From: Patescibacteria group bacterium
GTDB taxonomy: Bacteria; Patescibacteriota; Minisyncoccia; Phycocordibacterales; UBA1006
Assembly: GCA_028286885.1 (NCBI GenBank)
Contig: JAQBQS010000003.1
Span: forward strand, 44,607 to 108,606
Reading direction: 5' to 3'
Length of the DNA stretch: 64,000 nt
Each line of letters starts with the position of its first letter. Position 1 is the first letter of the stretch. The notes under the pieces are model-generated. The model saw only the letters and a program-made list of their open reading frames with translations, ran no database searches and was not told the DNA's origin. Shown here in pieces: positions 4,253-61,689 of this stretch. The translations under genes and the position numbers were made by a program.

Positions 4253-4262
4253 TGCAAGAATC

Positions 4263-5955: not shown

Positions 5956-5997
5956 TACACTTTATCCGTTAGCAATTAATAATTTTTCATAATACTC

Positions 5998-27819: not shown

Positions 27820-27831
27820 TTTTTTTAGTTT

Positions 27832-40385: not shown

Positions 40386-40389
40386 TTGT

Positions 40390-41609: not shown

Positions 41610-41617
41610 ATATTTCA

Positions 41618-41775: not shown

Positions 41776-41798
41776 TTGGTATGTTAAAATAACACCCA

Positions 41799-43514: not shown

Positions 43515-43526
43515 GACTTTGTTTCA

Positions 43527-43853: not shown

Positions 43854-43860
43854 CATAAAA

Positions 43861-43887
43861 CCGCCCTTAATCAAGGCGGTTTTTTCT
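43861..43887. terminator. bidirectional intrinsic terminator
   Basis: aaaccgcccttaatcaaggcggtttttt between convergent genes. Confidence 0.6.
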
Positions 43888-44502: not shown

Positions 44503-44533
44503 GGGGGAAGTATAGCAAAATAAAAACCGAGTC

Positions 44534-45052: not shown

Positions 45053-45149
45053 ATTATATTGTTATATTTCCTTTACTATAGCACAAATTATACTTTTTTC
45101 AAGAGCGCTTCACGATTCCAAAAAACCGCGCAATGCGGTTTTTTGGAAT

Positions 45150-45950
45150 TTAATAATTTGTTGTTGTATTCAACTGATAGGTTCCGACGACATTTCCACT
45201 CTGGTCATAAACCGTCACCGTTCCTCGGTAATTGGTGTTACTTGAAAGATTATTCAAGTAAATAGTATTCGACATTCCGTAGAGATTTCCGGAGTTCGCA
45301 GTCAACGTATTTCCATTAGGACCATAATAGCTGACAGTTGCTCGTACGGGCATGTTTGCGCCGATGTTGAGCGTTGCCGCGTTGTTCGTCACATTAGAAA
45401 CTGAGAATGTCGGATTATATGACATGCTCGTGCCCGCAGGGAATGCCTGGATCGTTGAAGATCCAAAAGCTCCTCCTGAAGAATTTCCTCCTACTGAGAA
45501 CGTGTGGCCCGCGCCCGTATTGATTCCGCTTAGCGTTATGTTGTGGTTCGTGCTGTATCCTTGTGAAGGATTTGCATATCCTGACAACACATTTGGCGTC
45601 GTAGGATTAGCTGTGTACCAAAGAAGGGTCGTTGTAGGCTGATCGGTTGTCCATGAAATCATAGCGCCAGTTGATGTCAGATTAGTCACCATGATATTGC
45701 TTATGACCGGTGAACCTGTTGTTATGACAGTTCCACCTGTGTTGTATCGGCAAAACGACATCTGGGCAGCGATCGCATCAGGCAACGACTGGCATACGAC
45801 AGCAGCCTGCGTGACGCTCAGAAGCGTAAAGCCGCTGACCTGGGGCGAGACGGTATAGTTGGATGCGAGTGAAAGAGCAGGGAATGCGAAGAGTGCTGCA
45901 AGTCCGGCGATAGTTGAAACCAGATACGTCTTCGTTGAATATTTTTTCAT
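45150..45950 (-). CDS. secreted Thr/Ser/Asn-rich protein (beta-sandwich repeat-like)
   Basis: Signal peptide MKKYSTKTYLVSTIAGLAALFAFPALSLA. T/S/N/G-rich. Confidence 0.5.
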   Translation of the reverse strand: MKKYSTKTYLVSTIAGLAALFAFPALSLASNYTVSPQVSGFTLLSVTQAAVVCQSLPDAIAAQMSFCRYNTGGTVITTGSPVISNIMVTNLTSTGAMISWTTDQPTTTLLWYTANPTTPNVLSGYANPSQGYSTNHNITLSGINTGAGHTFSVGGNSSGGAFGSSTIQAFPAGTSMSYNPTFSVSNVTNNAATLNIGANMPVRATVSYYGPNGNTLTANSGNLYGMSNTIYLNNLSSNTNYRGTVTVYDQSGNVVGTYQLNTTTNY

Positions 45951-46157
45951 ACGTCGTGGCGATTACTTCATATTAACTCGTTAATATTCGGTAATCGTAA
46001 AATTAGCGAATAAACTCCGTTGCTATTAATAATGACTCTCGACACCTTCAGTATACTCCTCTAAAAATAAGAGGAGTACATATTGACAGTGGATAAGATT
46101 TGTATCTTATTTTTCAATGAAAAATCCCCTTGGTTTGCAAGGGGATTAGATAAATTC

Positions 46158-46709
46158 TTAATCAAGAACTGTTTCTTTAGTTCCGATAGAAATAATTTCG
46201 AGACCTGTCACGTCCAGATTCCCTTTGTAGAGAACATGGGGAACTTTGTAATTTACGAGGAAGTTCAATCCGTTGCCAAGCCTTTCCTCGAAGTACGTTA
46301 TCGTTTCCTTAGGCAGCATGGAGTGGCGGCGGACGGATTCCGGAGAAAATTCCTCGAGATGTTCAGGTGCGATGCTATGCCATTCCTTTTTTGGAGGATG
46401 AACATAGATTCTCGTCAGTTCATGATCGAGCATCTCGACAGGAATCTTGTAGAATCGGGTGCCAAAGGGCGTGTAGTTAAACCGGTCGTAGACTTCCTGA
46501 TACTGGTTCGGATGGACCGGCGACATGAAGATCACGTCGTTCCACATGCAATCCAGAGTTGGAATCCGGATATCAAGTACCTTTTCTCGGCCTTCGTATT
46601 TGTTGACGTGCAGATCGTATGCCTCGGGATTTACCAACCGCAATGCATTGAGCGTGTAAAGGATCGGTCCCTCCATATTGGGAGGAATCCGGTGATAGAC
46701 ATATTCCAT
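46158..46709 (-). CDS. hypothetical protein
   Basis: 183 aa with balanced composition. The fully overlapping + strand ORF 46083..46751 is judged a shadow. Confidence 0.45.
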   Translation of the reverse strand: MEYVYHRIPPNMEGPILYTLNALRLVNPEAYDLHVNKYEGREKVLDIRIPTLDCMWNDVIFMSPVHPNQYQEVYDRFNYTPFGTRFYKIPVEMLDHELTRIYVHPPKKEWHSIAPEHLEEFSPESVRRHSMLPKETITYFEERLGNGLNFLVNYKVPHVLYKGNLDVTGLEIISIGTKETVLD

Positions 46710-46835
46710 GATTATATATTTTTTGTTGGGAAATATTTAAATATATCATAGCATTATCTTTATAAAAGTCAAATTTTATTCTTTTACAAGAATTCCGCTG
46801 AAAATACTTGAAAGTATTGAAGAATGAGCGTATAG

Positions 46836-47381
46836 TTGAGTAAAACATGTAATATGAGCCTTAAAAAGAAAATATGCTACACGACTCAGCCGTTTGATCT
46901 CTTGCAAAAAATGGATTGCACAGGAATGCTTGAAAAGGCAAAAATATTCTTTTCGGATACGGACCATTCGAAAGAAATCTCATCCGGCGAACTGGATGAG
47001 ATATTGAGAATCCTGATTGAGATAAAGCTTCTGGGCATTCAGTTTGAAGTTCAATTTTCTGCGGATAATTCCCAGGAACTGATTGCTGGCTGGAACGAAG
47101 TTTTTCCAAAAACGAATCCAGGGTCGAGAATGTCATCGCTCGCGTATCTGACAGGGGGAGAAGAAAAAGACATTCTTCTTTTGCTGAAAACGCTCGACAA
47201 GGATCCTGATCTTTCGAAACGCTTCGATGACCTTGTTCAATTTGAGGCGAGCGTCGCTCCTTACAGGATTAATCAGCCAAAGGCATTACAATCTGCCGCA
47301 GAAGCTTTGCTTTTGCCAGGTCGAAAAACTGACTACATAACAGCATTCGGTCCGCCGGAAAAAGATTTCATCAGACTATAA
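46836..47381 (+). CDS. hypothetical protein
   Basis: 181 aa. No homology recognised. Confidence 0.4.
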   Translation: MSKTCNMSLKKKICYTTQPFDLLQKMDCTGMLEKAKIFFSDTDHSKEISSGELDEILRILIEIKLLGIQFEVQFSADNSQELIAGWNEVFPKTNPGSRMSSLAYLTGGEEKDILLLLKTLDKDPDLSKRFDDLVQFEASVAPYRINQPKALQSAAEALLLPGRKTDYITAFGPPEKDFIRL

Positions 47382-47406
47382 AAACCCTCGCGGGTTTTTT
47401 TATTTA

Positions 47407-47868
47407 TTACACGTGATGATATTTTCCTCCTGAAATCAAATTTGTCACCCGATACAGCTGTTCGGCAATGACAAGCCGCGCCAGTTCGTGCGGCATGGTC
47501 ATGGCTCCGAGCTTTATAATCTGATTTGCTTGCGACTTGAAATTCTCATCAAGTCCGTACGCGCCGCCGATGACAAAGACCATTCGCTTGAATGATTCGT
47601 TCAGCTTCGATTCGATCAGTTTCGAGAATTCCGCTGTCGAGTATTCGCGTCCGCGTTCGTCGAGTGCTACGACAAAATCACCCTTCTTTATTTTTGAAAG
47701 AAGTTTTTCTGATTCTTTGATTCTGCATTGTTCGGTGTTATCGATGCCAAGAGGTTCCAAGATTTCCAGTTCCAAGGAAAACGGAGCGACAATGCGCTTT
47801 TTGTATTCTTGGATCATTGGATCGTATTCTGATTTTTTCTTGCCGATGGCGAGGATGGTGAGGGTCAT
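47407..47868 (-). CDS. rlmH: 23S rRNA (pseudouridine1915-N3)-methyltransferase RlmH
   Basis: SPOUT YbeA-type: LTILAIGKKKSEYDPMIQEYKKRI...VFVIGGAYGLDE...MTMPHELARLVIAEQLYR. Confidence 0.85.
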   Translation of the reverse strand: MTLTILAIGKKKSEYDPMIQEYKKRIVAPFSLELEILEPLGIDNTEQCRIKESEKLLSKIKKGDFVVALDERGREYSTAEFSKLIESKLNESFKRMVFVIGGAYGLDENFKSQANQIIKLGAMTMPHELARLVIAEQLYRVTNLISGGKYHHV

Positions 47869-47879
47869 AACAATAGGAG

Positions 47880-48425
47880 TTACTTAACGTAAACAGAACC
47901 TTCCTCGCACAGTTCGCACATGTATGAAATTCTGGATTTCTTGCCGGTCTTGTTTTTGTCGGGCGCGTAGACGGCGCATGCCTTGTCGCAGCGGAATCGC
48001 AGATATTGGTCGAGTGTTTTACCGGACTCTGTGCCGAGCATTGATTGGTAGTGCGATAGGTCTATTTCAAAATCAACAGGAACCATATTTTTGGCGACGA
48101 TGGAATATTTGCTTCCGACAAGGAGAACTTCTTCTGGAAGCAGAGACCATTCTTCGTCATTGATTGAATAATGCAAAAGTCTTTCAATGGGGGAATTAAA
48201 GTTAGAGGGTGTTTTGGTAAATAATACGGTAACTTTTTCGCCTTCGGACTTGGCGAGTTTTACAAATTCGGAAACGCGTCTCGGATGGCAGAATACGCCG
48301 CTGTAGCCGAGGAAAAACTTTCCGATCGCGGCCTGTTCCTTGGTTTTAATATCGATTATTTCCTCCAAGCTAAAACCGCAGAAAGGGCCGATTTTCATAA
48401 TGAGAATATACTTGGGCAAATTCAT
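47880..48425 (-). CDS. hypothetical protein with C-terminal Cys4 zinc-ribbon-like cluster
   Basis: RCDKAC...CELCEEG near the C-terminus. 181 aa. Confidence 0.45.
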   Translation of the reverse strand: MNLPKYILIMKIGPFCGFSLEEIIDIKTKEQAAIGKFFLGYSGVFCHPRRVSEFVKLAKSEGEKVTVLFTKTPSNFNSPIERLLHYSINDEEWSLLPEEVLLVGSKYSIVAKNMVPVDFEIDLSHYQSMLGTESGKTLDQYLRFRCDKACAVYAPDKNKTGKKSRISYMCELCEEGSVYVK

Positions 48426-48520
48426 GACTTCGGGAGCATATCATATTGTTCTTATGAAATACATTCTTGAGAAATCGCCGCATTAAAAAAGCGCTCAAGC
48501 GCTTTTTTAATGAAGGAATT

Positions 48521-49630
48521 TTATTTTGTTCGGAATGACATGGAATCTCCCAATGTCGTGCCGACGCTGTTTTGAGCGACAAGGCGGAAATAGTAGGTCG
48601 TGCGGCTGTTGAGCCCTGATACTGTTGATTGGATCGAATCGGAGCTCGTGCCTGACCCTGCGGACTGCTGTGCCGAATTGGTCACGCCTGTTGCGAACGA
48701 CGGATCGATCGTGTATTCGAACCAGTAGCTCGTGCCTGCGCCGTCAGGATTGACGGTACCTCGAAGCGTTGCGGCGGTTGCCGTAATTCCGGTCGCGCTT
48801 CGCGTAGTGACCGAAGGTGCAGTCGGAGCAGCAGGCCCGGAAGTCTTGAAATTCTGTATCGTTCCGCTCACGGTGCCAAACTGGTTTTGCGCGTCGATGC
48901 GGAAGTAATACGTTGTCAGGGGGTTCAGGTTGTAAACGGGGATGGATGCCGCAATGGCGCTGGTGCCGCTGCCCGCTGATACCAGCGAAGTTGTATTGTT
49001 AAGGCTTGTCGTCGTTCCATATTCGAACCAATAATTGGTCTGAACGCCGTTAGGAATAACGGAACCGTTCAAACTCGCTGAATTTCTTGCGATGTCGTTT
49101 GCGGCCCGCGTGCTAACGGCAGGAATCGTTCCGGCAGGCGCAGGAGTGCCCATGGTTGTCTGGAATGAGTACGTTGTGCCGTTCGTCCGGCCATACTGGT
49201 TTTCAGCGACAAGGCGAAAATAATATTTCGTGCTCTTGGCAAGTCCGGTGATGTATCCGGGCGCCGAAGTCGTTGCATATCCGGAGCCTACGCTTTGGTT
49301 AGGCGTCTTGCTTCCCAGATTTGAAGAGGTTCCATATTCGAACCAGTAGCTGGTAAACGCTCCGTTAGGACTGATCGTTCCCGCAACGATTGCGGCCGTG
49401 TCGCTCGGAGTTGAGCTCGATCCGGTTATGACGGAAGGCGCGCTCGGCTGTGCAGATGGTTTGGAAGGAGTGCTTCCGTTTGTTCCCGTGTCCGTACTCG
49501 CCGGCGTCCCTAGAGGAGTCACGATGACATTGGTGGGTGCCGGATTTCCCGTCTTAACGATTGCCAATACAATTGCCGCGATGGCAACCAATCCGATAAT
49601 TCCCACGACGATTGCTGTGTTTCTGTTCAT
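48521..49630 (-). CDS. membrane-anchored protein with three tandem Fn3-like repeats
   Basis: N-terminal TM. Three ~90-aa repeats each contain YWFEYG...S...Y(Y)FR(L/I)VAQN..G, separated by S/T/P-rich linkers. Confidence 0.55.
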   Translation of the reverse strand: MNRNTAIVVGIIGLVAIAAIVLAIVKTGNPAPTNVIVTPLGTPASTDTGTNGSTPSKPSAQPSAPSVITGSSSTPSDTAAIVAGTISPNGAFTSYWFEYGTSSNLGSKTPNQSVGSGYATTSAPGYITGLAKSTKYYFRLVAENQYGRTNGTTYSFQTTMGTPAPAGTIPAVSTRAANDIARNSASLNGSVIPNGVQTNYWFEYGTTTSLNNTTSLVSAGSGTSAIAASIPVYNLNPLTTYYFRIDAQNQFGTVSGTIQNFKTSGPAAPTAPSVTTRSATGITATAATLRGTVNPDGAGTSYWFEYTIDPSFATGVTNSAQQSAGSGTSSDSIQSTVSGLNSRTTYYFRLVAQNSVGTTLGDSMSFRTK

Positions 49631-49773
49631 ACGCTTCTTTCATGGTGATTATGACTAATCGTGCAGCGACCTCAACTGGGGTGGATGCACATAACCAGTA
49701 TACTCCTTATATTTTTACAAATGGGGTAAGCAGAGATTTGATCTTGTCGGGCCGGTGTTCTATACTTCAATTT

Positions 49774-50274
49774 ATGATCCAGAAATCAAAACCAGCCTAT
49801 TTTTTCAAGACCATAAAGTCGCCTGTAGGAATATTGAAATTGATTGCAAGCGATAAAGCACTTGTGGGAATTTTGTGGGAAAACGACAATCCCAACCGCA
49901 TTCAGATCCGCGAATATGCCAAGAATGCAAACCACCCAGTCTTGCTGAAAGCGGAAAAGGAGCTCGGCGAATATTTTGCCGGCAAGCGCAAGAAGTTTTC
50001 GGTGAAGATGGATTTTGCGGGAACTGAATTTCAGAAATCGGTATGGGCGACGCTTTTGACGATTCCGTTTGGCGAAACGCGCAGCTATGCCGACATCGCC
50101 AAGCAGATCAAGAATCCCAAAGCCGTCAGAGCGGCAGGTTCCGCCATCGGCAAGAATCCGATTTCGATCATCGCGCCATGCCATCGCGTGGTTGCAACGT
50201 CGGGCAAGCTTGCGGGATTTGCGGGCGGACTTGCGAACAAGAAGAAGCTTTTGGATTTGGAGTGCAAAAAATAA
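49774..50274 (+). CDS. ogt: methylated-DNA--protein-cysteine methyltransferase
   Basis: Active-site PCHRV motif (IAPCHRVVATSGKLAGF) and a helix-turn-helix segment (SYADIAKQIKNPKAVRAAGSAIGKNP). ATG at 49774 preceded by TATACT. Confidence 0.8.
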   Translation: MIQKSKPAYFFKTIKSPVGILKLIASDKALVGILWENDNPNRIQIREYAKNANHPVLLKAEKELGEYFAGKRKKFSVKMDFAGTEFQKSVWATLLTIPFGETRSYADIAKQIKNPKAVRAAGSAIGKNPISIIAPCHRVVATSGKLAGFAGGLANKKKLLDLECKK

Positions 50275-50300
50275 AATCTTTTTTAAATAAAAAAAGCGCT

Positions 50301-50771
50301 CTAAGTTGAGCGCTTTTTGCGGTATTTAGAAAATGCGACCAGCATTCCTATTACAAAGTAAGCGATAACTACGATGCAGCTGCCGAAGAAGAAACCTTTC
50401 ATAAAATGAAAATCTTTCGAAATGAATGCAAAAACATATAACCATATTATTCCTGCTCCGAAAGCGTGAAGAAAAATACCGGTGTAGAGAAATGTTATCA
50501 TCGTTGCGAAGACGGGTCTCTTGTTTCCTCCGAGGAGTCGATAAAGAGGTTTGGTCGTTTCTTCCGTGACAACGGGATTCCAGCTTGACCAGAACATTTC
50601 AATTGCAGCGAGAATCTTTTTCTGTTTCATTAATTTCCAAACTCTCTTGTATCCTTTTGATCGGAACAAAGATTCTGAAAAAGAATGTTCAGGCCCCATC
50701 CATCGGTTCTTAAAATAAAACAGCGGAGGAAAGAGGGCCTGGGCGAGGGTGTAAGCGATGAGTCTAAGCAT
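50301..50771 (-). CDS. hypothetical polytopic membrane protein
   Basis: 156 aa with 3-4 TM helices. Confidence 0.45.
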   Translation of the reverse strand: MLRLIAYTLAQALFPPLFYFKNRWMGPEHSFSESLFRSKGYKRVWKLMKQKKILAAIEMFWSSWNPVVTEETTKPLYRLLGGNKRPVFATMITFLYTGIFLHAFGAGIIWLYVFAFISKDFHFMKGFFFGSCIVVIAYFVIGMLVAFSKYRKKRST

Positions 50772-50955
50772 TTTTATTTTTTTCTTGAAGAAATAGTTTT
50801 TTGTCCAATTGGCAGTAACGCTATTATTTAGTATAAATTAGCATATAAAACATCTTTTGTCAAAAAATGCTTGGTAAAGTAAAAAATGGATAATTTATTT
50901 TGAATTTATTGGATCATTTCCTCGGAAGCGAAATTCGTGATAAGGTTTCAATAGT

Positions 50956-52428
50956 ATGGAAAGCGTAATAATTTCGGGACAATCGAAAAAATCCGGCAAA
51001 AGCGAGTTTGAAAAAACGAAGCTTTACGAGTCGGAAAAGGAAATACCGGGCTCAGTAAAAGGTTCGCATCTTGAAAAGATGGAAGAATATAGATTGAAAG
51101 TCAGGTCATATGACTCATCCAATCCGGACGAGTATATCCGTTTTTCTCTCGGAGAGGGGGCAGGCAAGGATTATATCAGCGCCACGCTTGTAAATTATTA
51201 CGATAGCAAGAAAACGCTAGCCCACCTAGGAATGAAAGGAGGCTATCCGGAGTACGTTATTTCCGGAGTTGATGAAAATGCGAAACGTTCCGATTCTTAC
51301 AGAAACTGTACTTGCGTTATAGCGGCCGGAGAGGATGTTCGAACTGGCAAGCAGATATCCTTCATGACGCATCAGAATCCAAGCTTTGCTTTTTCGACCG
51401 CAAGCGAGGATTTTAAGCGTGATCTTGGCGATACGATCAGAGAGTTTTTATCAAGGATCAAAGAAGGAACGGAGGACGTTGTCATTTTGGGCGGAAATTA
51501 TTATGAAAGCGTAAACAATGAGAACAAAAACGTTGAGCGAGTTTTTACGAACGCCGAGCAATATGCCGAATCGCTTCCAAGGCTTGCCGAGCTTATAACC
51601 TCGGAGTTCCGTCGTTCGGGGGTGGAGATACCGCCGGTGGTTCTTGTCGGACCGGATCTTTCAGATCCCTCTTCAAAATTTAAAGAAATGGACGTCGTGA
51701 TTGACACCCAAGCCCGCCTTGTTGTTACCGCGCGCAGCAAGCAATTTTATCAAATATCCGACGAGGTGCACGATTCTTCCGATACTCCGGCGGTTCTCGG
51801 CATCTTGGAAGAAAACAAAATTCGCGTCGGCAAGCCTTTCCGAAAGCATCGCTCGGACGAGCTTCTTGAGCTTGCGAATGAAAAAGCGTCGCGTCACGTG
51901 AAAGGCGAAGAAAAGGATTTTGTTCCTCGAACGGAAAGAGAAACGTACGAACTTTTAAAATCGCTGAAACTCCCGGTGTTTGAAAAGTTCGAGAGGGGAA
52001 ACGAGGCCGATGTCGGCGAGATAAACATCGGCTCCAAAAGCGAGCATGACAATATGGATCTTATTTACGGAGACGTAGCGTCCGAACTTTTGAAAAAGAA
52101 GATTGTCGACATATCCAACATTCAGGAATTTTTAGACAGCGCGATAGCGGATATGGTTCTCATGTCCGAGCAGTCAATGGAAATTTTAAGCCCGCAAAAC
52201 TCGTTTCTTTATTATTACGGCAAAACCACGGGTGATATCTCGTACCTGATAGGGGGAATCGGAGGATATATGCATATCGAAAAAAATACTGAAAACAGGG
52301 AAGATGCGCTGGTTCGAAATGTCGCGAATTTCATGAAGAGTTTTCATACGTTTATCGATTCCTTTGCAAAGCCGGAACATATTTCCAAGTACATGGAAAT
52401 TTTCCAAGTACATGGAAATGCTCAGTAG
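50956..52428 (+). CDS. hypothetical protein (490 aa); 3' end disrupted by a 19-bp tandem duplication
   Basis: No family recognised. A 19-bp direct repeat at 52384..52421 shifts the frame and creates the present stop. Confidence 0.5.
   Translation: MESVIISGQSKKSGKSEFEKTKLYESEKEIPGSVKGSHLEKMEEYRLKVRSYDSSNPDEYIRFSLGEGAGKDYISATLVNYYDSKKTLAHLGMKGGYPEYVISGVDENAKRSDSYRNCTCVIAAGEDVRTGKQISFMTHQNPSFAFSTASEDFKRDLGDTIREFLSRIKEGTEDVVILGGNYYESVNNENKNVERVFTNAEQYAESLPRLAELITSEFRRSGVEIPPVVLVGPDLSDPSSKFKEMDVVIDTQARLVVTARSKQFYQISDEVHDSSDTPAVLGILEENKIRVGKPFRKHRSDELLELANEKASRHVKGEEKDFVPRTERETYELLKSLKLPVFEKFERGNEADVGEINIGSKSEHDNMDLIYGDVASELLKKKIVDISNIQEFLDSAIADMVLMSEQSMEILSPQNSFLYYYGKTTGDISYLIGGIGGYMHIEKNTENREDALVRNVANFMKSFHTFIDSFAKPEHISKYMEIFQVHGNAQ
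52384..52421. repeat. perfect-ish 19-bp tandem duplication (ttccaagtacatggaaatt / ttccaagtacatggaaatg)
   Basis: Seen directly. Removing one unit extends the ORF 34 codons, to a TAA at 52514..52516. Confidence 0.8.
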
Positions 52429-52525
52429 TAAGCATCAAGGATGCATTGAGAGAAAATCTCGATCCGAAAAGATATCGTTCGCTCATCGAGACATTTTAAA
52501 AGAGAGATTGTCATAATAAATTCAC

Positions 52526-53077
52526 ATGGAATCAAACCTACCAACAAAAGAACAAGCGAAAGAATTGCTTTACAAGCACGTCACGGACGAGTATCAGCGC
52601 CTTCACGCCCTCATGGTCGGCACCGCACTTGAAGGGTACGCGCGCTTGTTCGGCGAGGATGAACATTTGTGGTTTATAACCGGGTATTTGCACGATCTCG
52701 ATTTCCAAGAATACCCGACGATCCATCCCGGCGAATCGATGAAATGGTTTGCCGAGTGGCAGTATCCGCAGGAATTAATTCATGCCGTCCATGCGCATGC
52801 GCTCGGATACAACGGATATACGCAAGAACCCGAGACGAAACTCGCCTCGGCTCTGATTGCGTGCGACGAAATCTGCGGAATCTTTTACGCGTATCGGAAA
52901 TTGAATCCGGTTCCCTACAATCAGATCAAGCAGAGCTCGATCTTGAAAAGACTGAAAGAAAAAGCGTTTGCTCCGGGAATCAAGAGGGAAGACATTCAGT
53001 ACGGATGCCAAAAATTAGGCGTGACGATAGAAGACCACGTCAAAAACCTGATTGATTTTTTGGGTGAGATCGCCTAG
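52526..53077 (+). CDS. HD-domain metal-dependent phosphohydrolase
   Basis: H...HD signature (RLHALMVGTALEGY...ITGYLHDLDF) and downstream His residues (HAVHAHALGY). Confidence 0.7.
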   Translation: MESNLPTKEQAKELLYKHVTDEYQRLHALMVGTALEGYARLFGEDEHLWFITGYLHDLDFQEYPTIHPGESMKWFAEWQYPQELIHAVHAHALGYNGYTQEPETKLASALIACDEICGIFYAYRKLNPVPYNQIKQSSILKRLKEKAFAPGIKREDIQYGCQKLGVTIEDHVKNLIDFLGEIA

Positions 53078-53085
53078 AACGTAAT

Positions 53086-53754
53086 TTACTTTCTCACCTC
53101 ATTTGAAACGTTTGATTCGTGGACAATTTCTATCCACATGGGTTTCGATGATGGCAGCAAGACTACTTCTTCGCCCGATTCGAAAATTTTTGAATGATTG
53201 TATTGAAGAATGCATCCATCTTTAGGGGCGATCATTGATAGGAAGTGATTATTTTTTGCATTAAATTCGTGCGTAATATCCGTTCTTAGGTCCAATTGCT
53301 GGCCTTTTTCCAAGCTCACGATGCACCTACGGAGATTGTCTTCCGCATAGGTCTGAACTGCTTCCATGTACTGATTGTCGAACATATCATCGTTATCGAT
53401 TCTCGAAGTGATGAACCATTCGTTTTTATAACCACTGTCATCTATAAACTTCTCAAAACGAAAAGGCTCGTCGTCCCCGAAATACAGATCTATAAAATCA
53501 TACTGTTTTTTGAGTCCTTGTATTTTTTCCTTGAAAGCTGCCGGGGTTTCCTTGTGAAAAAGAATAATCCACTTGAAATTTTGAGATGTCTGGTTCTTAA
53601 TGGAAGGGAACGTATAAGTTTCAAACAAGCGGAATCTGTTTTCCAAGTAGGCCGAATCCAGAATCAAGTTCATCGGATTATTGTTCGGATCTCTTAACTT
53701 GGCATAGGTTGCCCTTATATTGAATCTTGTTATTAAAAAATGTTGGTAGCTCAT
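53086..53754 (-). CDS. putative glycosyltransferase (rhamnosyltransferase-like family)
   Basis: N-terminus HFLITRFNIRATY and a DxD-like SRIDNDD, resembling the putative rhamnosyl transferase family. Confidence 0.45.
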   Translation of the reverse strand: MSYQHFLITRFNIRATYAKLRDPNNNPMNLILDSAYLENRFRLFETYTFPSIKNQTSQNFKWIILFHKETPAAFKEKIQGLKKQYDFIDLYFGDDEPFRFEKFIDDSGYKNEWFITSRIDNDDMFDNQYMEAVQTYAEDNLRRCIVSLEKGQQLDLRTDITHEFNAKNNHFLSMIAPKDGCILQYNHSKIFESGEEVVLLPSSKPMWIEIVHESNVSNEVRK

Positions 53755-53800
53755 AAAGTTTTATTATGTTCAGTAATAGCAAAAACTACTTGCAATGGAA

Positions 53801-54346
53801 CTATTTTAGCTCCTCAGCCAGCCCCACAAGAATTCCCTCGGGACCTCGGATATAACAGAGCCGATACGAGTTCTCATATTGAACCACTTCGCCAACTATT
53901 TTTGCGCCGTGTTTTTCAAGTCGTTCAAGCGTCTCATCGATGTCGCTTACCGTGAACATTGCACGGAGATAACCCAATGCGTTCACAGGATCATTGCGGT
54001 GATCAGCGACTATGGCCGGAGCAATAAATCGCGAGAGTTCAATTCGGCTGTGGCCGTCGGGAGTGATCATCATTGCGATCTCAACTTCTTGGTTCCCGAG
54101 TCCTGTAACGCGACCGGCCCATTCTCCCTCGACCATAGCTCGCCCTTCAAGTTTGAGTCCAAGTTCGGTGAAAAAAGAAATAACCTCGTCGAGCGATTCC
54201 ACGACGATGCCGATGTTGTCCATTCGGAGGAGGGTGGATTTTTTAGAGATCATATTTGTGAACATACAGCCCCTAGAGTGGACCACCTTTGAAACAGAGA
54301 TTCTGCGCTGGAAAAGCACTGTCTCAGTATACGGGCGTTTATTCAA
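53801..54346 (-). CDS. VOC-family (glyoxalase/bleomycin-resistance fold) protein
   Basis: MDNIGIVVESLDEVISFFTELGLKLEGRAMVE..., and a second beta-alpha-beta-beta-beta module ending YIRGPEGILVGLAEEL. Confidence 0.7.
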   Translation of the reverse strand: MNKRPYTETVLFQRRISVSKVVHSRGCMFTNMISKKSTLLRMDNIGIVVESLDEVISFFTELGLKLEGRAMVEGEWAGRVTGLGNQEVEIAMMITPDGHSRIELSRFIAPAIVADHRNDPVNALGYLRAMFTVSDIDETLERLEKHGAKIVGEVVQYENSYRLCYIRGPEGILVGLAEELK

Positions 54347-54423
54347 GGAATCTGAGGAGCTTAATTTAAGCGTTAGTTTTTAATCAAAGTATCTGAGAAT
54401 TATTACCTTAAGGGTAATAGAAC

Positions 54424-56487
54424 TTACAAAGATAGAACATTTGTAAAAATGTCATCGAGGTCGGCTTTGTGGTCTGTGTGCATTGTAGAAAGGTTGTCAT
54501 TGCTACAGTAATCTACAACCTCTTGCAGTCCCTTACTAGGAAATTGTAGATAGGTTTCAATTGCTCCGTATGAGAGGACAAAAACCCTTATTGCTCTTAA
54601 GTTAATTATTTTTTCTTTGATTTTTAAAATCACTGCAGGATTTAAAGTAAGGACAGAGATTATTTTTGAGAAAGGTATTCGCTTTTTATATAGGAAATAC
54701 CAAATATCTTTTATTTGATTTATTTCATCCTGGCTTATAGCAGATACATCCTTATCTTTTATTTCCTGCATTGCATTGAATAAATCAGCTGTAATCTTAG
54801 TTCCTGATTGTGAGAGGGTGCTTTTGACGCGCGTTATTGTGTCGGCATCTAATCCTGACAATAAAATCTCCTCTTTGGCAGTCTCTATCCCTAAGTCAGA
54901 AAATTGCTCAAGAAAGTCAAAATCAGTTATAAATGCTGACTTTATTTTTAACTTATCTAGAAAATCAAACCATTTCTTATATTCATGCTTACCGTTTATG
55001 GAAAGAAATTCAAAATCTTCATCTGATTTACCTGCTTTATTTAGAAAATATGAATAAAAATAGTTATCAGTTTCGCCTTCAACCAAAATAACCTTATTTG
55101 TGAAGAAAATCTTTGCTGAATTTGTATAATTTAAAAATTTTATCAAATCTTCTTCAGAAGAAGTGACCACATTTCCTTGAACAATGTTTGTTGCAGAATT
55201 TTCAACATAAAACCGATAGGTGTTTTTTATTGTTTTCTCATCGATGAAAACAGGGGAATGTGTTATCAGAATTGACTGCAGGCCATAATCATTAGAAAAG
55301 CGCTTTAATAGATTGAAATATTTTTTCTGCAATTTTGGATGTAAGTGTATCTCAGGTTCATCTATAACAAGGAGTCCATTTTTTATCTCTAATCCCATTA
55401 CAAGGAAAATAAGCGAAAATATACTTTTTTGGCCACTGCTAAGTTGATTGAAATCCATAACTCGACCATTTTTAGTTGTGTATATTTCTATAACTATTGC
55501 CTTAATACTTGGCGGGGGTATTTCTCTATATCTAACTTTAAGTCCTAGATATTCATCAAGCATGTTGTTTATGTCATGCAATAAAGAGCCTGTGGCTGTA
55601 AATTGTTTGGTTATAGAATCAGGTACGCTTAAAGAGCCGTAGCTATCTTTTGCGATTTTATTTCCGACCTTAGTAAAGGGAATGTTAAAAATATGCCCTG
55701 AATCAGAACTATTTTTTATATTGACACCTTTTTGCCCATCCTCTAGATTGCCAACTTGATTCTCTTGTCCGGTATTGAAATTAATCTGTGGAGGAAAACT
55801 ACTTATGAATCTTTGAGCTCCTAAGAATTCAAACGATATTACTAGCTCGTCCCAGTTTTTTGATTCTCGCTCCGTACCGATAATGATAAGTTTCTTGAAC
55901 AAGTCGAAGTTTTTCAGATAAAAATTGACAATTTTTTGCTCATCTGTACCATCGGGTTCAAGAGAAAAGACTAACCTTGGTTGGCCATTATCAAGTTTAA
56001 ATTTGAAACTAACATTCGAGATTGTCGAAATATTTGTGGTTTCAATTGGGAACGCAGAAACATTAAGCAGCCCTTGTGCGTATTTCCTTGAGATTTCATT
56101 TATTATTGCAAAATTTGCCTTAATAAATTCTAGGTTTTTTCTATCAGATTCATTCAATTCAATTTTTAATTCAAGGTAAGAATTTTTAGTACTTGAAAGG
56201 TTGTGCTTATCAAGCCTCAAGCCATTACGAGTATTCTCCTTTTTCTTCAAATACCGAGGATTTTTGGAGCGGTCTGTGTCGTATGCGGGCTCATAATCAT
56301 ATGGCTCAACAAAGTAAATTTGGAAAAGCGTAAATAAGATTTCAACAAAATTGCTTTTCCCCGAACCGTTTGCGCCAACAATAATATTTAAAGCGTCACC
56401 GAATATAATATCTGAGGGAGAGGTATTAAAATCAGCTTTTTCTGCAAAACTTAATATATTTGAAATTTTGACCTCTTTGATTTTCAT
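54424..56487 (-). CDS. OLD-family ATP-dependent endonuclease (ABC-type ATPase + TOPRIM)
   Basis: Walker A GANGSGKSN. Walker B/D-loop LLVIDEPEIHLHPKLQ. C-terminal TOPRIM KVILVEGETDNYFY. The gene is ~30% GC, far below the genome background. Confidence 0.75.
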   Translation of the reverse strand: MKIKEVKISNILSFAEKADFNTSPSDIIFGDALNIIVGANGSGKSNFVEILFTLFQIYFVEPYDYEPAYDTDRSKNPRYLKKKENTRNGLRLDKHNLSSTKNSYLELKIELNESDRKNLEFIKANFAIINEISRKYAQGLLNVSAFPIETTNISTISNVSFKFKLDNGQPRLVFSLEPDGTDEQKIVNFYLKNFDLFKKLIIIGTERESKNWDELVISFEFLGAQRFISSFPPQINFNTGQENQVGNLEDGQKGVNIKNSSDSGHIFNIPFTKVGNKIAKDSYGSLSVPDSITKQFTATGSLLHDINNMLDEYLGLKVRYREIPPPSIKAIVIEIYTTKNGRVMDFNQLSSGQKSIFSLIFLVMGLEIKNGLLVIDEPEIHLHPKLQKKYFNLLKRFSNDYGLQSILITHSPVFIDEKTIKNTYRFYVENSATNIVQGNVVTSSEEDLIKFLNYTNSAKIFFTNKVILVEGETDNYFYSYFLNKAGKSDEDFEFLSINGKHEYKKWFDFLDKLKIKSAFITDFDFLEQFSDLGIETAKEEILLSGLDADTITRVKSTLSQSGTKITADLFNAMQEIKDKDVSAISQDEINQIKDIWYFLYKKRIPFSKIISVLTLNPAVILKIKEKIINLRAIRVFVLSYGAIETYLQFPSKGLQEVVDYCSNDNLSTMHTDHKADLDDIFTNVLSL

Positions 56488-56628
56488 ATTATTATCTATT
56501 CTACAATGTTCTTACTTTATTTAATAGGCATTTAAAATACCCCTATTCGGAAATAGTGAGTGGAATACCAAAACAGACCTTAGTGTTTAAGCTTAATAAG
56601 GAGAATATAGATGAAAAATCTCTGTCTG

Positions 56629-56700
56629 TGACCTTACGGGGAATCGAACCCCGCTTCCAGGAATGAGAATCCTGTGTCCTAGCCGATAGACGATAAGGCC
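56629..56700 (-). tRNA. tRNA-Glu (anticodon CTC)
   Basis: Minus-strand sequence GGCCTTATCGTCTATCGGCTAGGACACAGGATTCTCATTCCTGGAAGCGGGGTTCGATTCCCCGTAAGGTCA folds as a cloverleaf: acceptor GGCCTTA/TAAGGTC, anticodon stem CAGGA/TCCTG, loop TTCTCAT, T-arm CGGGG-TTCGATT-CCCCG. Architecture parallels E. coli tRNA-Glu. CCA is not encoded. Confidence 0.75.
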
Positions 56701-56764
56701 GGCTGTCTTCTTGGCAAAGACTTGCCAAGCGGGAAATAGTATACCTATTTTGGGATTTTTTTCA

Positions 56765-56795
56765 AGTAAAAAAGCCGTCAATCATTTGACGGCTC
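56765..56795 (-). terminator. intrinsic terminator (minus strand)
   Basis: Minus strand reads agccgtcaaatgattgacggcttttttac, downstream of gene 56812..57465. Confidence 0.55.
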
Positions 56796-56811
56796 TGTTC
56801 TAATAGAGAAG

Positions 56812-57465
56812 TTATTTCGGCTCAAGGCTTTTAAAAAAGTAGTCGCGGATCTCTTTTGGAAAACCTCTTAGTTTTCTCCGAGTAGGCATGGGTCCTGATT
56901 CAGCATATCTGTCATACAGATATCTGAGACGCGCGATAGCTTTCTCTCTTTGATCTAGCCGGTAACCCTTTGGAGAGTCGACGATCTTCTTGATCTTTTC
57001 AAAGACGACTTCGTCAAGGTTTTTTATGGCTTGGCTTCTTGCCTTCGCGAGTCTTTTTAATCTCGAGTCGAAGCTTTTTGCAGGATCTAAAGAGCGGGTC
57101 ATGATAGACAAGACGCAGGAGAGGTTACTTTCTAGTGAATTAAATTTTTCTGATGAAAGATTTTTCTCCAAGATTTTGTTGAGGATCATCTCCTCGAGAT
57201 CGACAATAGCGGTTACGAATTCAGACCTAAAATTGTCTCTTTTGCCGCGAGGAAAATTAAAATTCAAATTATCGGTATTGAAGGCATACATTTCTTTGAG
57301 GAGTTCTGTATTTTTCTCGACCGAATTTTTCTGATGATCGTGAAGCGTTACTTTTTGAAGGAGTAGCACCAACTTGATGAGGTGTGGGTAGGTAGGACCG
57401 GTGTTTTTCATGATATTTTGTTTTTTAAATAGTACCATGAATATTAAAATAAGGCAAATTATCAA
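56812..57465 (-). CDS. hypothetical protein
   Basis: 217-aa ORF; the start may be the internal MKNTG. No homology recognised. Confidence 0.4.
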   Translation of the reverse strand: MIICLILIFMVLFKKQNIMKNTGPTYPHLIKLVLLLQKVTLHDHQKNSVEKNTELLKEMYAFNTDNLNFNFPRGKRDNFRSEFVTAIVDLEEMILNKILEKNLSSEKFNSLESNLSCVLSIMTRSLDPAKSFDSRLKRLAKARSQAIKNLDEVVFEKIKKIVDSPKGYRLDQREKAIARLRYLYDRYAESGPMPTRRKLRGFPKEIRDYFFKSLEPK

Positions 57466-59149: not shown

Positions 59150-59183
59150 ATAAAACAAAAAATCCCGTGGGGGATTTTTTGTT

Positions 59184-59921
59184 TTATCTCGGATGAAACG
59201 TTTCTGTTCCAATTTCGATTTCTTTCTTGAAAACGCTCGCATTTGCCTTGTTATACCTTCTCATGATTTCCCACGGATTCGGAGCATTGTTAAACCTTCT
59301 TGCCGATGTTTTTATTTCAAACGAGCCTGAGTAACGAATTGTTCCCTCATTGAGAAGTCTGCTCGTCGTGTCATGTTCTTCGCCGTAGAATTCCGAACCG
59401 TTTCGGTAGCCTCCTATTTTTTCAAGGGCGCTGGCGCGCATGAAAATATTCGCTCCCCAGCAGATGTTTCTTTTCTTGAATCTGTTCAAGAAATAATTGA
59501 ACGTACCGAGAAACATTCCGGAAATTTTCGTTCCGACGCGCAATCTCCATTCGCCGTCATAGTAATCGATCGTTCCGGCTACCGCTGCGATGGTTGGGGA
59601 ATCGAAAAGCGCCGTTGCGTTCCTCATCCAGTTTTTAGGAACGATGCAGTCGGCGTCGAGCTGCGCGATGATTTGGCCTTTGGATGCGCGCCGTCCGGCT
59701 TCGCGGGCAAATGAAACGCCTTTGTTCGGTTCGGAGACGGTTTTTATTTTTCCAGGATACTCGGATTCAAGGCTTGAAATGATCTCGGAAGTCTTGTCAG
59801 TGGAAGCATTATTTACCAAGATAACTTCAAAATCCTGATAATCCTGTTTCAAAACGCTCTCGACGGTTTCCTTGATCCATTTTTCCTCGTTGTAGCAGGG
59901 GATGACGACAGATACGTACAT
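59184..59921 (-). CDS. family 2 glycosyltransferase
   Basis: VVIPCYNEEKWIKETVESVLKQDY..FEVILVNNASTD...QLDAD are GT2 blocks. Confidence 0.8.
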   Translation of the reverse strand: MYVSVVIPCYNEEKWIKETVESVLKQDYQDFEVILVNNASTDKTSEIISSLESEYPGKIKTVSEPNKGVSFAREAGRRASKGQIIAQLDADCIVPKNWMRNATALFDSPTIAAVAGTIDYYDGEWRLRVGTKISGMFLGTFNYFLNRFKKRNICWGANIFMRASALEKIGGYRNGSEFYGEEHDTTSRLLNEGTIRYSGSFEIKTSARRFNNAPNPWEIMRRYNKANASVFKKEIEIGTETFHPR

Positions 59922-59990
59922 ATCAGTTAACTATCTCATATTTTTAATATTATCGCAAAAATATCCGCATGACCTGCGGATATTTTTTGC

Positions 59991-60611
59991 CTAAGCGCCG
60001 GCTTTTTTCGACCGGTGTTTTTTTATTTTCTTGATCAGATACTGGGTCAGGATGATCGCGAAAAACGAAAGGATGATGAGCAAAAAGATATGCTCGACTC
60101 CTCCGACTTTCTTGGCCACCTTGTTCCAGTAGGGCCCCGAAACATATCCCAAGATGACAAATCCGAAATTCCAAACGATGTCCGAGACGATGACGGCGGT
60201 TGCGAATTTCCAAGGCTTCACCTTCATGAGTCCGGCAGCGACGCAGATGTATCCCCGGCCGAACGGCACGACGCGCCCGATCATGACGGCGACGATTGAT
60301 CTCTTGGAGATCTTCTCGGAAAGGTTTTTTACGAGAGAGCGAGGGAAGGGGATCCTAGGATGGTGCATGACCCATTCTCCGATGAAGTAGAATGCTCCGT
60401 ACAGTATCCATGCGCCGATCATGCTTGCGACCGTCGCAGCTGCAGCGGCGAGCACCAGATTGAATGTCGAGAGATATGCCAGATATCCGAAGAACATCAG
60501 GAGAAGTTCGTTCGGCGCGGGAACGGGAATTCCCAATTCCTGCACGACAATGAGGCCGATGATGGCCACGTAACCGTACTGGGTGAGAAAATGAATGATC
60601 GAAGGTGACAT
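59991..60611 (-). CDS. DedA/TVP38-family membrane protein
   Basis: YGYVAIIGLIVVQELGIPVPAPNELLLMFFGYL and the conserved GR..PFGRGYI segment. Confidence 0.75.
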   Translation of the reverse strand: MSPSIIHFLTQYGYVAIIGLIVVQELGIPVPAPNELLLMFFGYLAYLSTFNLVLAAAAATVASMIGAWILYGAFYFIGEWVMHHPRIPFPRSLVKNLSEKISKRSIVAVMIGRVVPFGRGYICVAAGLMKVKPWKFATAVIVSDIVWNFGFVILGYVSGPYWNKVAKKVGGVEHIFLLIILSFFAIILTQYLIKKIKKHRSKKAGA

Positions 60612-60627
60612 GGTGTGCCAGGTGTTG

Positions 60628-60698
60628 TTGCCAGACTAGGACTCGAACCTAGATAGTCGGTACCAGAAACCGAAGTCCTACCATTAGACGATCTGGCA
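60628..60698 (-). tRNA. tRNA-Gln (anticodon CTG)
   Basis: Minus-strand sequence TGCCAGATCGTCTAATGGTAGGACTTCGGTTTCTGGTACCGACTATCTAGGTTCGAGTCCTAGTCTGGCAA. Perfect 7-bp acceptor with U1:A72, anticodon stem TCGGT/ACCGA, loop TTCTGGT, T-arm CTAGG-TTCGAGT-CCTAG. Confidence 0.75.
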
Positions 60699-60743
60699 AT
60701 GTTTTGAAATAGTAGCAAATTTTCCCGCAGGAATCAACCGGAG

Positions 60744-60771
60744 CATAAAAAAATCCCGCCGTGAAGCGGGA
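60744..60771 (-). terminator. intrinsic terminator (minus strand)
   Basis: Minus strand reads atcccgcttcacggcgggattttttt, downstream of gene 60791..61570. Confidence 0.55.
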
Positions 60772-60790
60772 TTGATAAGGGGTTTGTATT

Positions 60791-61570
60791 TTACAAAAAT
60801 GACTTGATCACTTCCACATACTCGCTGTTCAATCCGCCGAGCCTGAAAAGGGTGACGGTCTTGAATCCTGCGTTGGTCGCGTATTGCAGATCCTGGCTGA
60901 GCATCTGTGGCGTCAGGATCTGCTCGTTGCCGAAGACTCCCGTAGCGATAACGCCGAGCGAAAGCTCGAGGTTCCGGTTTTGCGACCGCTGTTTGGTCAG
61001 ATGCTTGTGCATCATTGGCTTGAGAAAGTCCGCAATCATGCTCGAGTAGTACATCGGCGATGATCGGTGTCCGAGTACTGGATCATAGGAATTGCCCAGG
61101 AATCTGTACACACTTTCCGCTAGTCCGAATGGTGCAGGATATTGTGCGGTTACGGGTGTGATGCCATGACGAGATGCCTTCCTCAAGAAATTTCTGATCA
61201 TCTTCTTGTTGTTTGAAAATGAGAAGAGATTCTTGAAAAACAGATGACGCCTGCCTGCAAGAATGGGCAGCTCCAAATCGACGAGTACGGTGAGCGGTTC
61301 GCCTGCCGAGAGCACGTCGTTGATCATTCCCTCGAGATCTAGAGAATAAGAGAATGCCGACACCCAGTAGCTCCGGTTAATGATGGGCCAATATGCCGCT
61401 TCCAATTTTGGATTGATAGCAAGCAGCTTCTCGCGAAATTTCTTGAATTCCGAAACGGAGTGCGCGGCGATGTAAATCATGGACGGGAAGTCGATAAGGC
61501 GTGCCTTTTCAAGATTCTCCGGGTTGTCGGGATACTCTTCGTAAAAGTTAATTCTTTCTATTTTTTCCAT
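60791..61570 (-). CDS. hypothetical protein
   Basis: 259 aa. No homology recognised. Confidence 0.45.
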   Translation of the reverse strand: MEKIERINFYEEYPDNPENLEKARLIDFPSMIYIAAHSVSEFKKFREKLLAINPKLEAAYWPIINRSYWVSAFSYSLDLEGMINDVLSAGEPLTVLVDLELPILAGRRHLFFKNLFSFSNNKKMIRNFLRKASRHGITPVTAQYPAPFGLAESVYRFLGNSYDPVLGHRSSPMYYSSMIADFLKPMMHKHLTKQRSQNRNLELSLGVIATGVFGNEQILTPQMLSQDLQYATNAGFKTVTLFRLGGLNSEYVEVIKSFL

Positions 61571-61689
61571 TGTAATGTATTTGTGTGCATATTAGCATAT
61601 TTATTAAATCGTGTCAAATAAAAAGCGGCCTTCATTCTTATACATGAAAGCCCTTGATTTTTTTGAATATTCGTGCTATTTTAATTTAT

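Follow-up and report, generated by a model that had tools for sequence, protein, structure and literature searches.

A solitary OLD-family gene, very probably acquired and likely defensive, downstream of tRNA-Glu(CTC) in a patescibacterial genome

Introduction

The proteins of the OLD family, in which an ABC-type ATPase is combined with a Toprim nuclease, are divided into classes by their genetic context (PMC10568477). Class 1 comprises P2 Old, TsOLD (PDB 6P74), Vc OLD and YbjD (OldB), each a single polypeptide encoded by a solitary gene and built of an N-terminal ABC ATPase with an inserted domain and a C-terminal OLD-type Toprim domain. GajA of the Gabija system, the partner of the UvrD-like helicase GajB, belongs to Class 2, the OLD protein of retron-Eco8 (type I-B) to Class 3, and in PARIS (Class 4) the ATPase and the Toprim domain are split between AriA and AriB. 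Here we describe a gene for a 687-aa protein of this family (the old-like gene) in a stretch of 64,000 nucleotides (the window) from a Patescibacteria group bacterium (assembly GCA_028286885.1, contig JAQBQS010000003.1, positions 44,607 to 108,606 of the forward strand), where it follows a tRNA-Glu(CTC) gene on the same strand. We think it likely that this is a solitary Class 1 OLD gene, horizontally acquired as a one-gene insertion and probably encoding a defence enzyme. An identical protein is on record (MDB4984007.1).

Defence by solitary OLD proteins has been documented for P2 Old, Vc OLD and YbjD (PMC12445682, PMC12392090, PMC13261556). In P2 Old and Vc OLD residues of both the ATPase and the Toprim domain are needed in vivo (PMC7049728, PMC12392090). 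Vc OLD blocks phage replication by nicking DNA (PMC12392090), whereas P2 Old cuts the anticodon stems of tRNAs in an abortive infection (PMC12445682). Class 1 genes have been reported in about 0.45% of bacterial genomes (PMC12392090), and OLD-family genes have previously been noted in Patescibacteria, namely in Candidatus Sungbacteria (bioRxiv 10.64898/2026.08.18.745644). Only a few solitary OLD proteins (P2 Old, TsOLD, Vc OLD and YbjD) have been characterized, and the present gene comes from a divergent subfamily of longer proteins. Patescibacteria have small genomes, are probably episymbiotic and are usually described as poor in defence systems.

Domain structure and catalytic residues

That the 687-aa protein is an OLD-family protein, with an ABC ATPase fused to an OLD-type Toprim domain, is as good as certain. 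Pfam places AAA_21 (2.1e-23) or AAA_15 (3.3e-21) over residues 1-416 and OLD-like_TOPRIM (PF20469, E 6.6e-13) over residues 461-524. The search against OLD, GajA and AriA/AriB profiles that the initial annotation had proposed gave Old as the top PADLOC model (E 7.4e-32, residues 369-665); AriA, AriAB and many GajA models ranked below it. In the collection of phages, too, P2 Old matched best (26% identity across residues 370-591, hhalign probability 99.1). With P2 Old first in both searches, the evidence tilts at most slightly to a P2-like enzyme. None of the NCBIfam equivalogs came near its own cutoff (the retron-Eco8 effector model reached 55 bits against a cutoff of 250). A single-sequence search of the PDB gave matches around Walker B only; a profile made from an alignment of 50 homologues (alignment A1) found TsOLD best (1.2e-23), aligned from the signature region through LVEG..D and DxD, then AriA and PtuA (ATPase only), then GajA (1e-12) and Eco8 OLD (4.6e-12). 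With the AlphaFold model the top Foldseek matches were GajA (8x5i, 3e-14), TsOLD and retron-Eco8 OLD. The family assignment, which had been made from motifs and architecture, is thus straightforward by standard profile searches.

The motifs from which it had been made are all there: GANGSGKSN at residues 38-46, LLVIDEPEIHLHP at 372-384 and ILVEGETDNYFY at 467-478. G352, D376, E377, P378, E379 and H383 are invariant in A1 and the H-loop residue H410 is nearly so. The Walker B and D-loop region aligns to E276, E277 and H283 of TsOLD (H383 corresponding to H283), and E470, D474, D522 and D524 align in the A1 profile to its E377, D381, D431 and D433 (LVEGYGD, HDED); the roles of these residues in TsOLD have been described (PMC7049728). 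E644 and K652 (E+8) probably correspond to E480 and R487 of TsOLD, the basic residue being K562 in BpOLD, and would act as metal-B glutamate and transition-state lysine. This equivalence is drawn from order and spacing alone, and the residue two before E644 is A instead of the S/T of the metal-B S/T-x-E motif. The positions of these motifs, and their conservation in A1 and in an alignment of the close clade (A2), are given in Table 1.

In the AlphaFold2 model, computed for the monomer only, a mixed alpha/beta insertion of about 280 residues lies between Walker A and the signature motif. The distance from DxD to E644 is about 120 residues, against 47 in TsOLD, and the model shows in this region a helical insert (~105 aa) at residues 525-632.

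Comparison with the known classes

The protein is a Class 1 (solitary) OLD protein by context. Within about 6 kb of the gene there is no helicase, reverse transcriptase (RT), retron RNA, separate Toprim protein, integrase or other PADLOC match, in agreement with the proposal of a stand-alone Class 1 protein and with the earlier statement that no GajB-like helicase or integrase is adjacent. Like the characterized Class 1 enzymes it is a single polypeptide and has the D-loop histidine (H383). A separate C-terminal helical domain past the last Toprim strand seems to be lacking: only 43 residues follow E644, which is Class 1-like, yet the helical insert of about 105 residues sits before the last strand.

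It also differs from them. The identity to the characterized Class 1 enzymes is only 13-26%, and its length of 687 aa exceeds that of TsOLD (528), of P2 Old (586) and even of the GajA chains (575-598). Class 1 proteins are on average about 50 aa shorter than those of Class 2, a tendency that the 687-aa protein does not follow and that is one of averages, no strict criterion. The stretch after DxD is comparable in length to that of P2 Old. The Walker B of TsOLD is E-E and Class 1 signatures have been described as degenerate (PMC7049728), whereas here the signature is a canonical LSSGQ and Walker B ends in a D-E pair. The host phylum, Patescibacteria, is different as well.

With GajA of Class 2 the protein shares the ATPase-Toprim fold and a helical insertion in the Toprim region, and several PADLOC GajA models match it at 1e-19 to 1e-24; however, the profile match to GajA is far weaker than that to TsOLD, and GajB is adjacent neither in the window nor at any of the ten loci of its clade (see below). 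From PARIS it is distinguished by having both domains in one open reading frame (ORF), and from retron-Eco8 by its neighbours, which contain no RT domain, and by the absence of a retron non-coding RNA from the 64 kb as searched with Rfam, in which nothing but two tRNAs was found. Structure prediction, which had been suggested as a way to decide the class, gave a fold like that of GajA, TsOLD and Eco8 OLD, with a Class 2 protein as the top Foldseek match; the class itself was set by context. The gene is a new divergent member of an established, rare Class 1 defence type and does not represent a new type of system. What is unusual in it is the length, the Toprim insert, the canonical signature motif and its presence or absence as one AT-rich ORF that often flanks a tRNA gene.

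Probable acquisition downstream of tRNA-Glu

The old-like gene was very probably acquired horizontally. Its GC content is 0.330 and its GC at third codon positions (GC3) 0.298, compared with means of 0.465 (sd 0.058) and 0.521 (sd 0.101) for 70 non-overlapping ORFs of the window (z = -2.3 and -2.2). Only two of these 70 have a lower GC, and none of the low-GC ORFs comes near it in length. Since GC3 is shifted as much as total GC, the amino-acid composition is not the sole source of the deviation. In a 100-bp profile the AT-rich stretch begins at about 54,300 and ends at 56,627, where it meets the tRNA 3′ end, and thus includes the spacer and the 3′ flank. The AT-richness seen in the initial annotation holds, although its figures of about 30% against 48% were slightly overstated (measured, 33% and 46%). 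The return of the neighbours to normal GC, which it also described, applies to the VOC/glyoxalase gene (GC 0.49, host-like) and not to the rhamnosyltransferase-like gene beyond it, which is itself rather AT-rich (GC 0.38, z = -1.4).

Upstream of the tRNA-Glu(CTC) gene the window has an ORF of 217 aa and then ftsE and ftsX on the opposite strand. A scan of genome contigs for FtsX found 17 loci (FtsX identity 43-88%), most of them in records titled Candidatus Saccharibacteria. In 9 of the 17 (FtsX 59-81% identical) tRNA-Glu(CTC) stands divergently beside ftsE as it does in the window. Genes for the OLD protein, the VOC protein and the rhamnosyltransferase, and the 217-aa ORF, are absent from the recovered sequence of all 17. 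Universal synteny of the old-like gene at the same GC content was therefore not observed in related genomes. The tRNA gene is a resident of the host that marks the boundary of a variable region and lies outside the acquired DNA.

The extent of this region is seen from the relative with a 274-kb contig (L016), whose genes from 1225 to 6216 are collinear with 39,951-47,868 of the window. Collinearity resumes at the tRNA and ftsEX; in between, L016 has 2.9 kb of unrelated small genes and the window about 8.8 kb of non-syntenic DNA (47,868-56,628). Besides the old-like gene, the VOC gene and the rhamnosyltransferase gene, the non-syntenic interval (47,880-56,627) holds the genes for the Ogt methyltransferase, an FN3-repeat protein, an HD protein and unknown proteins of host-like GC. 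The initial annotation is to be corrected in that the non-syntenic region is this whole stretch of ~8.8 kb and not the old-like gene only. The DNA 3′ of tRNA-Glu differs in each of the four relatives that have several kb there (L016, L019, L023 and L024), and most of it is without family matches. In this lineage the DNA on the 3′ side of tRNA-Glu is thus variable; within it, the old-like gene is the one next to the tRNA and the only one that is strongly AT-rich. Between the window and its relatives only the tRNA itself aligns at the DNA level, and the exact junction can therefore not be set.

As in tRNA-linked islands, the DNA is located directly 3′ of a tRNA gene (the spacer, estimated before at about 140 bp, is exactly 140 bp), is atypical in composition, was not found in relatives and lies at the edge of a variable region. 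In contrast to such islands there is no integrase, no duplicated tRNA 3′ end and no att repeat, and only one gene, about 2.3 kb long, makes up the compositionally foreign part. Between 47.8 and 57.5 kb neither an integrase nor a recombinase domain was found, and no repeat of at least 11 nt derived from the tRNA 3′ end was detected downstream of tRNA-Glu. Of the acquired islet that had been proposed the acquisition therefore stands, nine relatives having kept tRNA-Glu and ftsEX with the old-like gene not found in the sequence recovered, and the classic integrase-borne island does not.

Homologues and an empty site

The closest homologues of the protein are P0002 (58% identical) and P0003 to P0012 (46-51%), all of 689-705 aa. 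Among 1.84 billion representatives of clusters at 50% identity this clade has one representative; the next relatives are at most 38% identical, and 270 clusters match at E <=1e-30. A scan of metagenome contigs with the clade alignment, which relied on generic ATPase patterns, gave none closer than 34% identity among the matches listed. In viral contigs and, by tblastn, in phages and plasmids no relative above about 28% identity over most of the protein was detected, and there is no evidence in these collections for a phage- or plasmid-borne clade.

The genetic context was compared for the window and nine further distinct loci (L001, L002, L004, L006, L008, L010, L151, L152 and L153). At all ten the OLD gene is solitary, the neighbours differ each time, and no conserved partner gene was found. 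The clade gene has a GC content of 0.31-0.37 in hosts of 0.37-0.54. The two hosts checked, those of the window and of L002, are both Patescibacteria; the latter belongs to a separate lineage, as judged from its UvrC, which shares 54-59% identity with entries from Patescibacteria and Taylorbacteria. The clade is under purifying selection: dN/dS is 0.11 for L004/L153, the single usable pair, dS being saturated in every other.

A tRNA gene on the same strand is present within 1 kb upstream of the OLD gene in 4 of the 10 loci (Table 1), as compared with 6-7% of the 247 other ORFs of at least 150 aa on the same contigs (binomial P ~0.001-0.004). At none of the four is there an att-like repeat of the tRNA 3′ end downstream. 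For one of them, L002, an empty counterpart was recovered from an independent sample. This locus (L155) is 80-86% identical to L002 in nucleotide sequence across yceG...ddl-uvrC, and its tRNA-Ala(TGC) with the 26 nt upstream is 98% identical. In L155 a spacer of 69 bp (9756-9824), which contains a terminator hairpin, separates the tRNA from the 3′ end of ddl. In L002 (7951-10102) the place of these 69 bp is taken by 2,152 bp consisting of 50 bp, the OLD ORF and about 22 bp, and the difference begins at the first base past the tRNA. The pair shows that the tRNA is resident, that the unit present or absent is one ORF and that neither an integrase nor a repeat is involved. The spacer of L155 matches the final 20 nt of the OLD ORF in L002 at 19 of 25 positions. 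This could be the scar of a deletion or chance, so that the event may have been an insertion or a deletion. The OLD protein of L002 being 47% identical, this empty site supports an acquisition in the window by analogy, short of proof.

A module of three parts (small ORF, tRNA, OLD) was considered and rejected: the 217-aa ORF of the window is unrelated to the 237-aa ORF upstream in L002, and the tRNA genes of both are resident host genes. Co-transfer of neighbours was likewise rejected, no protein encoded in 47,880-57,465 of the window having a homologue at any clade locus.

Some of the other loci deserve a separate description. In L006 (4869-12437) the OLD homologue has a serine recombinase of 588 aa on one side and a KAP/AAA_16 NTPase of 773 aa on the other, 4 kb past a tRNA-Val gene, and the locus looks like a small mobile defence island. 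In L004, L010 and L153, which share both flanks of the OLD gene including a 3′ flank with a terminator, a small HTH_28-like gene (79% identical) is divergent from it; in L004 this gene is truncated to 41 aa and followed by short repeats of the CCCAATATC type. Defence or mobility genes also occur near the OLD gene in L153 (a type III restriction-modification (R-M) methylase) and in L004 (RelB/ParE), and in L152 a large SNF2/ResIII helicase is encoded just upstream, with an S24 peptidase and an HTH protein among the neighbours. In L002 and L008 the gene is near uvrC, fpg, uvrA, recR and dnaB.

Proposed function and alternative explanations

We propose that a Saccharibacteria-like genome gained the old-like gene, a member of a small AT-rich clade, horizontally by a one-gene insertion that placed it right after the 3′ end of the resident tRNA-Glu(CTC) and at the border of a variable region. 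The product, an ABC-type ATPase fused to what would be a two-metal Toprim nuclease, would dimerize via the domain inserted in the ATPase, as does TsOLD (PMC7049728). Binding and hydrolysis of ATP (K44, LSSGQ, D376/E377, H383, H410) would gate the Toprim site (E470, D474, D522, D524, E644, K652). Upon phage infection or the entry of foreign DNA the nuclease would nick or cut double-stranded nucleic acid, either DNA, as do Vc OLD and TsOLD, or the stems of tRNAs, as does P2 Old, and phage replication would be halted, possibly at the cost of the cell. Transcription would plausibly start from the tRNA promoter by read-through and from a -10-like box of the gene's own. The sequence data show the architecture, the catalytic motifs, the solitary context, the atypical composition and the one-ORF difference in a clade member; a role in defence, with its substrate and trigger, and the way in which the gene was transferred are inferred, the mode of action from the characterized enzymes. 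A function in defence appears probable to us, and the type III R-M methylase, KAP NTPase, RelB/ParE pair and serine recombinase beside other clade members speak for it. As presence and absence differ cleanly by one gene and tRNA flanks recur, the clade is a convenient natural case for asking how single defence genes may move without recognizable mobility genes, and whether OLD enzymes outside the Proteobacteria target DNA or tRNA.

Several observations weigh against this proposal. With 100-160 aa more than the characterized Class 1 enzymes and only 13-26% identity to them, their properties may not hold for the protein. No other defence gene is nearby in the window, so that an association with a defence island is lacking here. 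At least one clade of the OLD family, the archaeal Cran1, does not act in defence (PMC12796447). On the side of acquisition, the best relatives are separate species and provide no empty site at the nucleotide level near the window genome; an integrase, a transposase and flanking direct repeats are missing; and the AT-richness could in part stem from a constraint on the gene rather than from recent transfer.

A cellular housekeeping role in DNA or RNA metabolism (repair, replication restart, cell-cycle control or RNA processing) is what Cran1 would suggest, since it shows that OLD-family proteins need not defend (PMC12796447); besides, the Toprim domain of YbjD is dispensable for its phage phenotype (PMC13261556), the window gene lies among metabolic and repair genes (Ogt, HD, VOC) with no defence neighbours, and the repair and replication genes near L002 and L008 were mentioned above. 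We nevertheless consider this role unlikely, because such a gene would be vertically conserved and compositionally adapted, whereas the old-like gene was not found in the nine syntenic relatives or in any other relative retrieved, is missing at the L155 site, and is sporadic in distribution, foreign in GC and confined to a single 50%-identity cluster among the 1.84 billion representatives. It is also quite improbable that the gene is a remnant, as the initial annotation had allowed, inactive or orphaned on its own and left over from a system of the Gabija, retron or PARIS kind or from an integrative element that has decayed. No mobility gene is left in the window, a small HTH gene is linked to the OLD gene in three loci and is decaying in one of them (L004), and L152 has its helicase; but the ORF is intact and full-length with all catalytic residues, which are invariant, the dN/dS of the clade is 0.11, none of the ten loci has a conserved partner, L002 and L155 differ by exactly one ORF, and the profile is nearer to TsOLD (Class 1) than to GajA or Eco8 OLD.

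The gene could also be viewed as a selfish one-gene element, that is, a nuclease cassette of the homing-like or addiction type, directed at the 3′ flanks of tRNA genes, for which any effect in defence would be secondary. The transferable unit would then be one ORF with less than about 150 bp of flank and no integrase, it lies next to four tRNA genes specific for three amino acids (Glu in two cases, Ala and Asn), and it is AT-rich whatever the host, traits that resemble those of free-standing homing endonuclease genes. On the other hand, a tRNA gene within 1 kb upstream is lacking in 6 of the 10 loci, no target sequence or flank is common to the whole clade, and some members travel with a recombinase or the small HTH gene, which indicates ordinary carriage by mobile elements; moreover, we know of no ABC-Toprim protein that promotes its own mobility. 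We therefore hold this possibility to be very improbable, and the same applies to its extension to the whole AT-rich clade as a self-contained one-ORF cassette that lands at tRNA 3′ ends without an integrase, perhaps in a homing-like manner by means of its own Toprim nuclease, and that may be coupled to the tRNA in transcription. AriB of PARIS cleaves tRNAs. If the cassette were real, the coupling could tie a tRNA-directed toxin to the expression of a tRNA, given that both P2 Old and AriB have tRNAs as targets. An artefact of assembly or binning, by which an AT-rich segment became chimerically joined into the contig, is barely credible: the source is indeed a metagenome-assembled genome and the composition jumps sharply, but the segment lies well inside a contig of about 124 kb and is bordered on either side by host genes in synteny, a like arrangement recurs in independent assemblies (L002/L003, L006/L007 and L008/L009), and the junction at the tRNA is seamless with the tRNA intact. 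The solitary, horizontally acquired defence gene remains the reading that we favour.

Local signals and neighbouring genes

The features of the locus are compiled in Table 1.

Table 1. Positions of the old-like gene, its sequence motifs and the features around it, with the corresponding features of homologous loci (coordinates are those of the window unless a locus is named)
Feature	Position	Strand	Remarks
old-like gene	54424..56487	minus	687 aa, ATG start
ABC ATPase domain	residues 1-~440		insertion at ~60-340
Walker A/P-loop GANGSGKSNF (residues 38-47, K44)	56347..56376	minus	N40, G43, K44, S45 invariant in A1
ABC signature LSSGQ (349-353), Walker B LLVIDE (D376, E377), D-loop H383	55333..55440	minus	
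OLD-type Toprim domain	residues ~461-650		helical insert ~525-632, then short C-terminal helical tail
Toprim core VEGETD (E470, D474) and TDFD (D522, D524)	54916..55080	minus	all four invariant in A1
last Toprim motif G641-x-x-E644 ... K652	54532..54567	minus	E644 invariant in A1, K652 invariant in A2
3′ flank of old-like gene	54347..54423	minus	GC 0.31 over 77 bp after the stop codon
hairpin TATTACC-CTTAA-GGTAATA	54395-54417	minus	7-bp stem, directly past the old-like stop codon
spacer from tRNA-Glu 3′ end to old-like ATG	56488..56627	minus	140 bp, GC 0.29
tRNA-Glu(CTC)	56628..56700	minus	ARAGORN and Rfam (53 bits); kept beside ftsEX in 9 relatives
promoter-like TTGAAA-16-TATACT ahead of tRNA-Glu	56765-56738	minus	consensus scan, pattern match only
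terminator-like hairpin of upstream ORF	56796-56771	minus	consensus scan, pattern match only
217-aa ORF	56812-57465	minus	no family match; upstream of tRNA-Glu, within the 820-bp gap to ftsE
VOC/glyoxalase gene	53801-54346	minus	Pfam E 4e-11; downstream of old-like gene
Rhamno_transf gene	53086-53754	minus	Pfam E 3e-26; downstream of VOC gene
rlmH-like SPOUT methyltransferase gene	47407-47868		borders the non-syntenic interval 47,880-56,627
tRNA-Glu, window	140 bp upstream of OLD gene		
tRNA-Ala(TGC), L002	50 bp upstream of OLD gene		
tRNA-Asn, L004	326 bp upstream of OLD gene		
tRNA-Glu(CTC), L008	808 bp upstream of OLD gene		
HTH_28-like gene	L153 3687-4076; L010 1618-1914; L004 7783-7908	minus	

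A -10-like box, TAGAAT, ends 10 nt 5′ of the old-like ATG. A Shine-Dalgarno-like motif precedes only 5 of 44 genes of the window, and many have a TATAAT-like box that ends 7-10 nt before the ATG; such starts are seen throughout the window, e.g., at 57521, 52526, 30586 and 23203. This pattern suggests that leaderless mRNAs, or mRNAs with very short leaders, are widespread in the source genome, and with TAGAAT at a distance of 10 nt the start of the old-like gene resembles these leaderless-type starts of the host. In a consensus scan of the 140-bp spacer no terminator-like hairpin was found between tRNA-Glu and the ATG, and the predicted RNA fold of the spacer is not more stable than that of shuffled sequences (z = +1.3). 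Read-through from the tRNA promoter into the old-like gene is possible from this arrangement. The RNA fold of the 3′ flank is likewise not more stable than shuffles. The window (54395-54417) and the 51%-identical homologue of L151 (~2505-2530) resemble one another in a hairpin-like sequence (TTCTATTAC..TAAGGTAA) past the OLD stop codon, which may be a conserved 3′ element.

Farther downstream of the rhamnosyltransferase gene are encoded the HD protein, proteins of 490 and 156 aa without family match, the Ogt methyltransferase, the FN3-repeat protein and an unknown protein of 181 aa. On the other side of the tRNA, the gap to ftsE of 820 bp compares with 65-345 bp in most relatives, and no homologue of the 217-aa ORF was found; thus the other flank of tRNA-Glu also holds lineage-specific DNA. 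Immediately 3′ of tRNA-Glu three relatives (L019, L014 and L023) share about 28 nt that can form a hairpin (GCTAGTTCGAGCACTCGACAAGGGTCG), which is present neither in the window nor in L016.

The interval between ftsX and the gene at 61654 (59150-61650) is variable among the relatives as well. In the window it contains genes for a GT2 glycosyltransferase, a VTT/DedA protein, tRNA-Gln and a 259-aa ORF; its counterpart is 6.3 kb long in L016 and much shorter in L013 and L014, where tRNA-Gln follows ftsX after about 35-55 bp.

Two adjacent ORFs of 151 and 139 aa on the plus strand (27364-27819 and 27832-28251) have the lowest GC of the window (0.305 and 0.262, GC3 ~0.2). They gave no Pfam match at the curated cut-off and no PHROG family, and the pair (27364-28251) looks like a second AT-rich islet.

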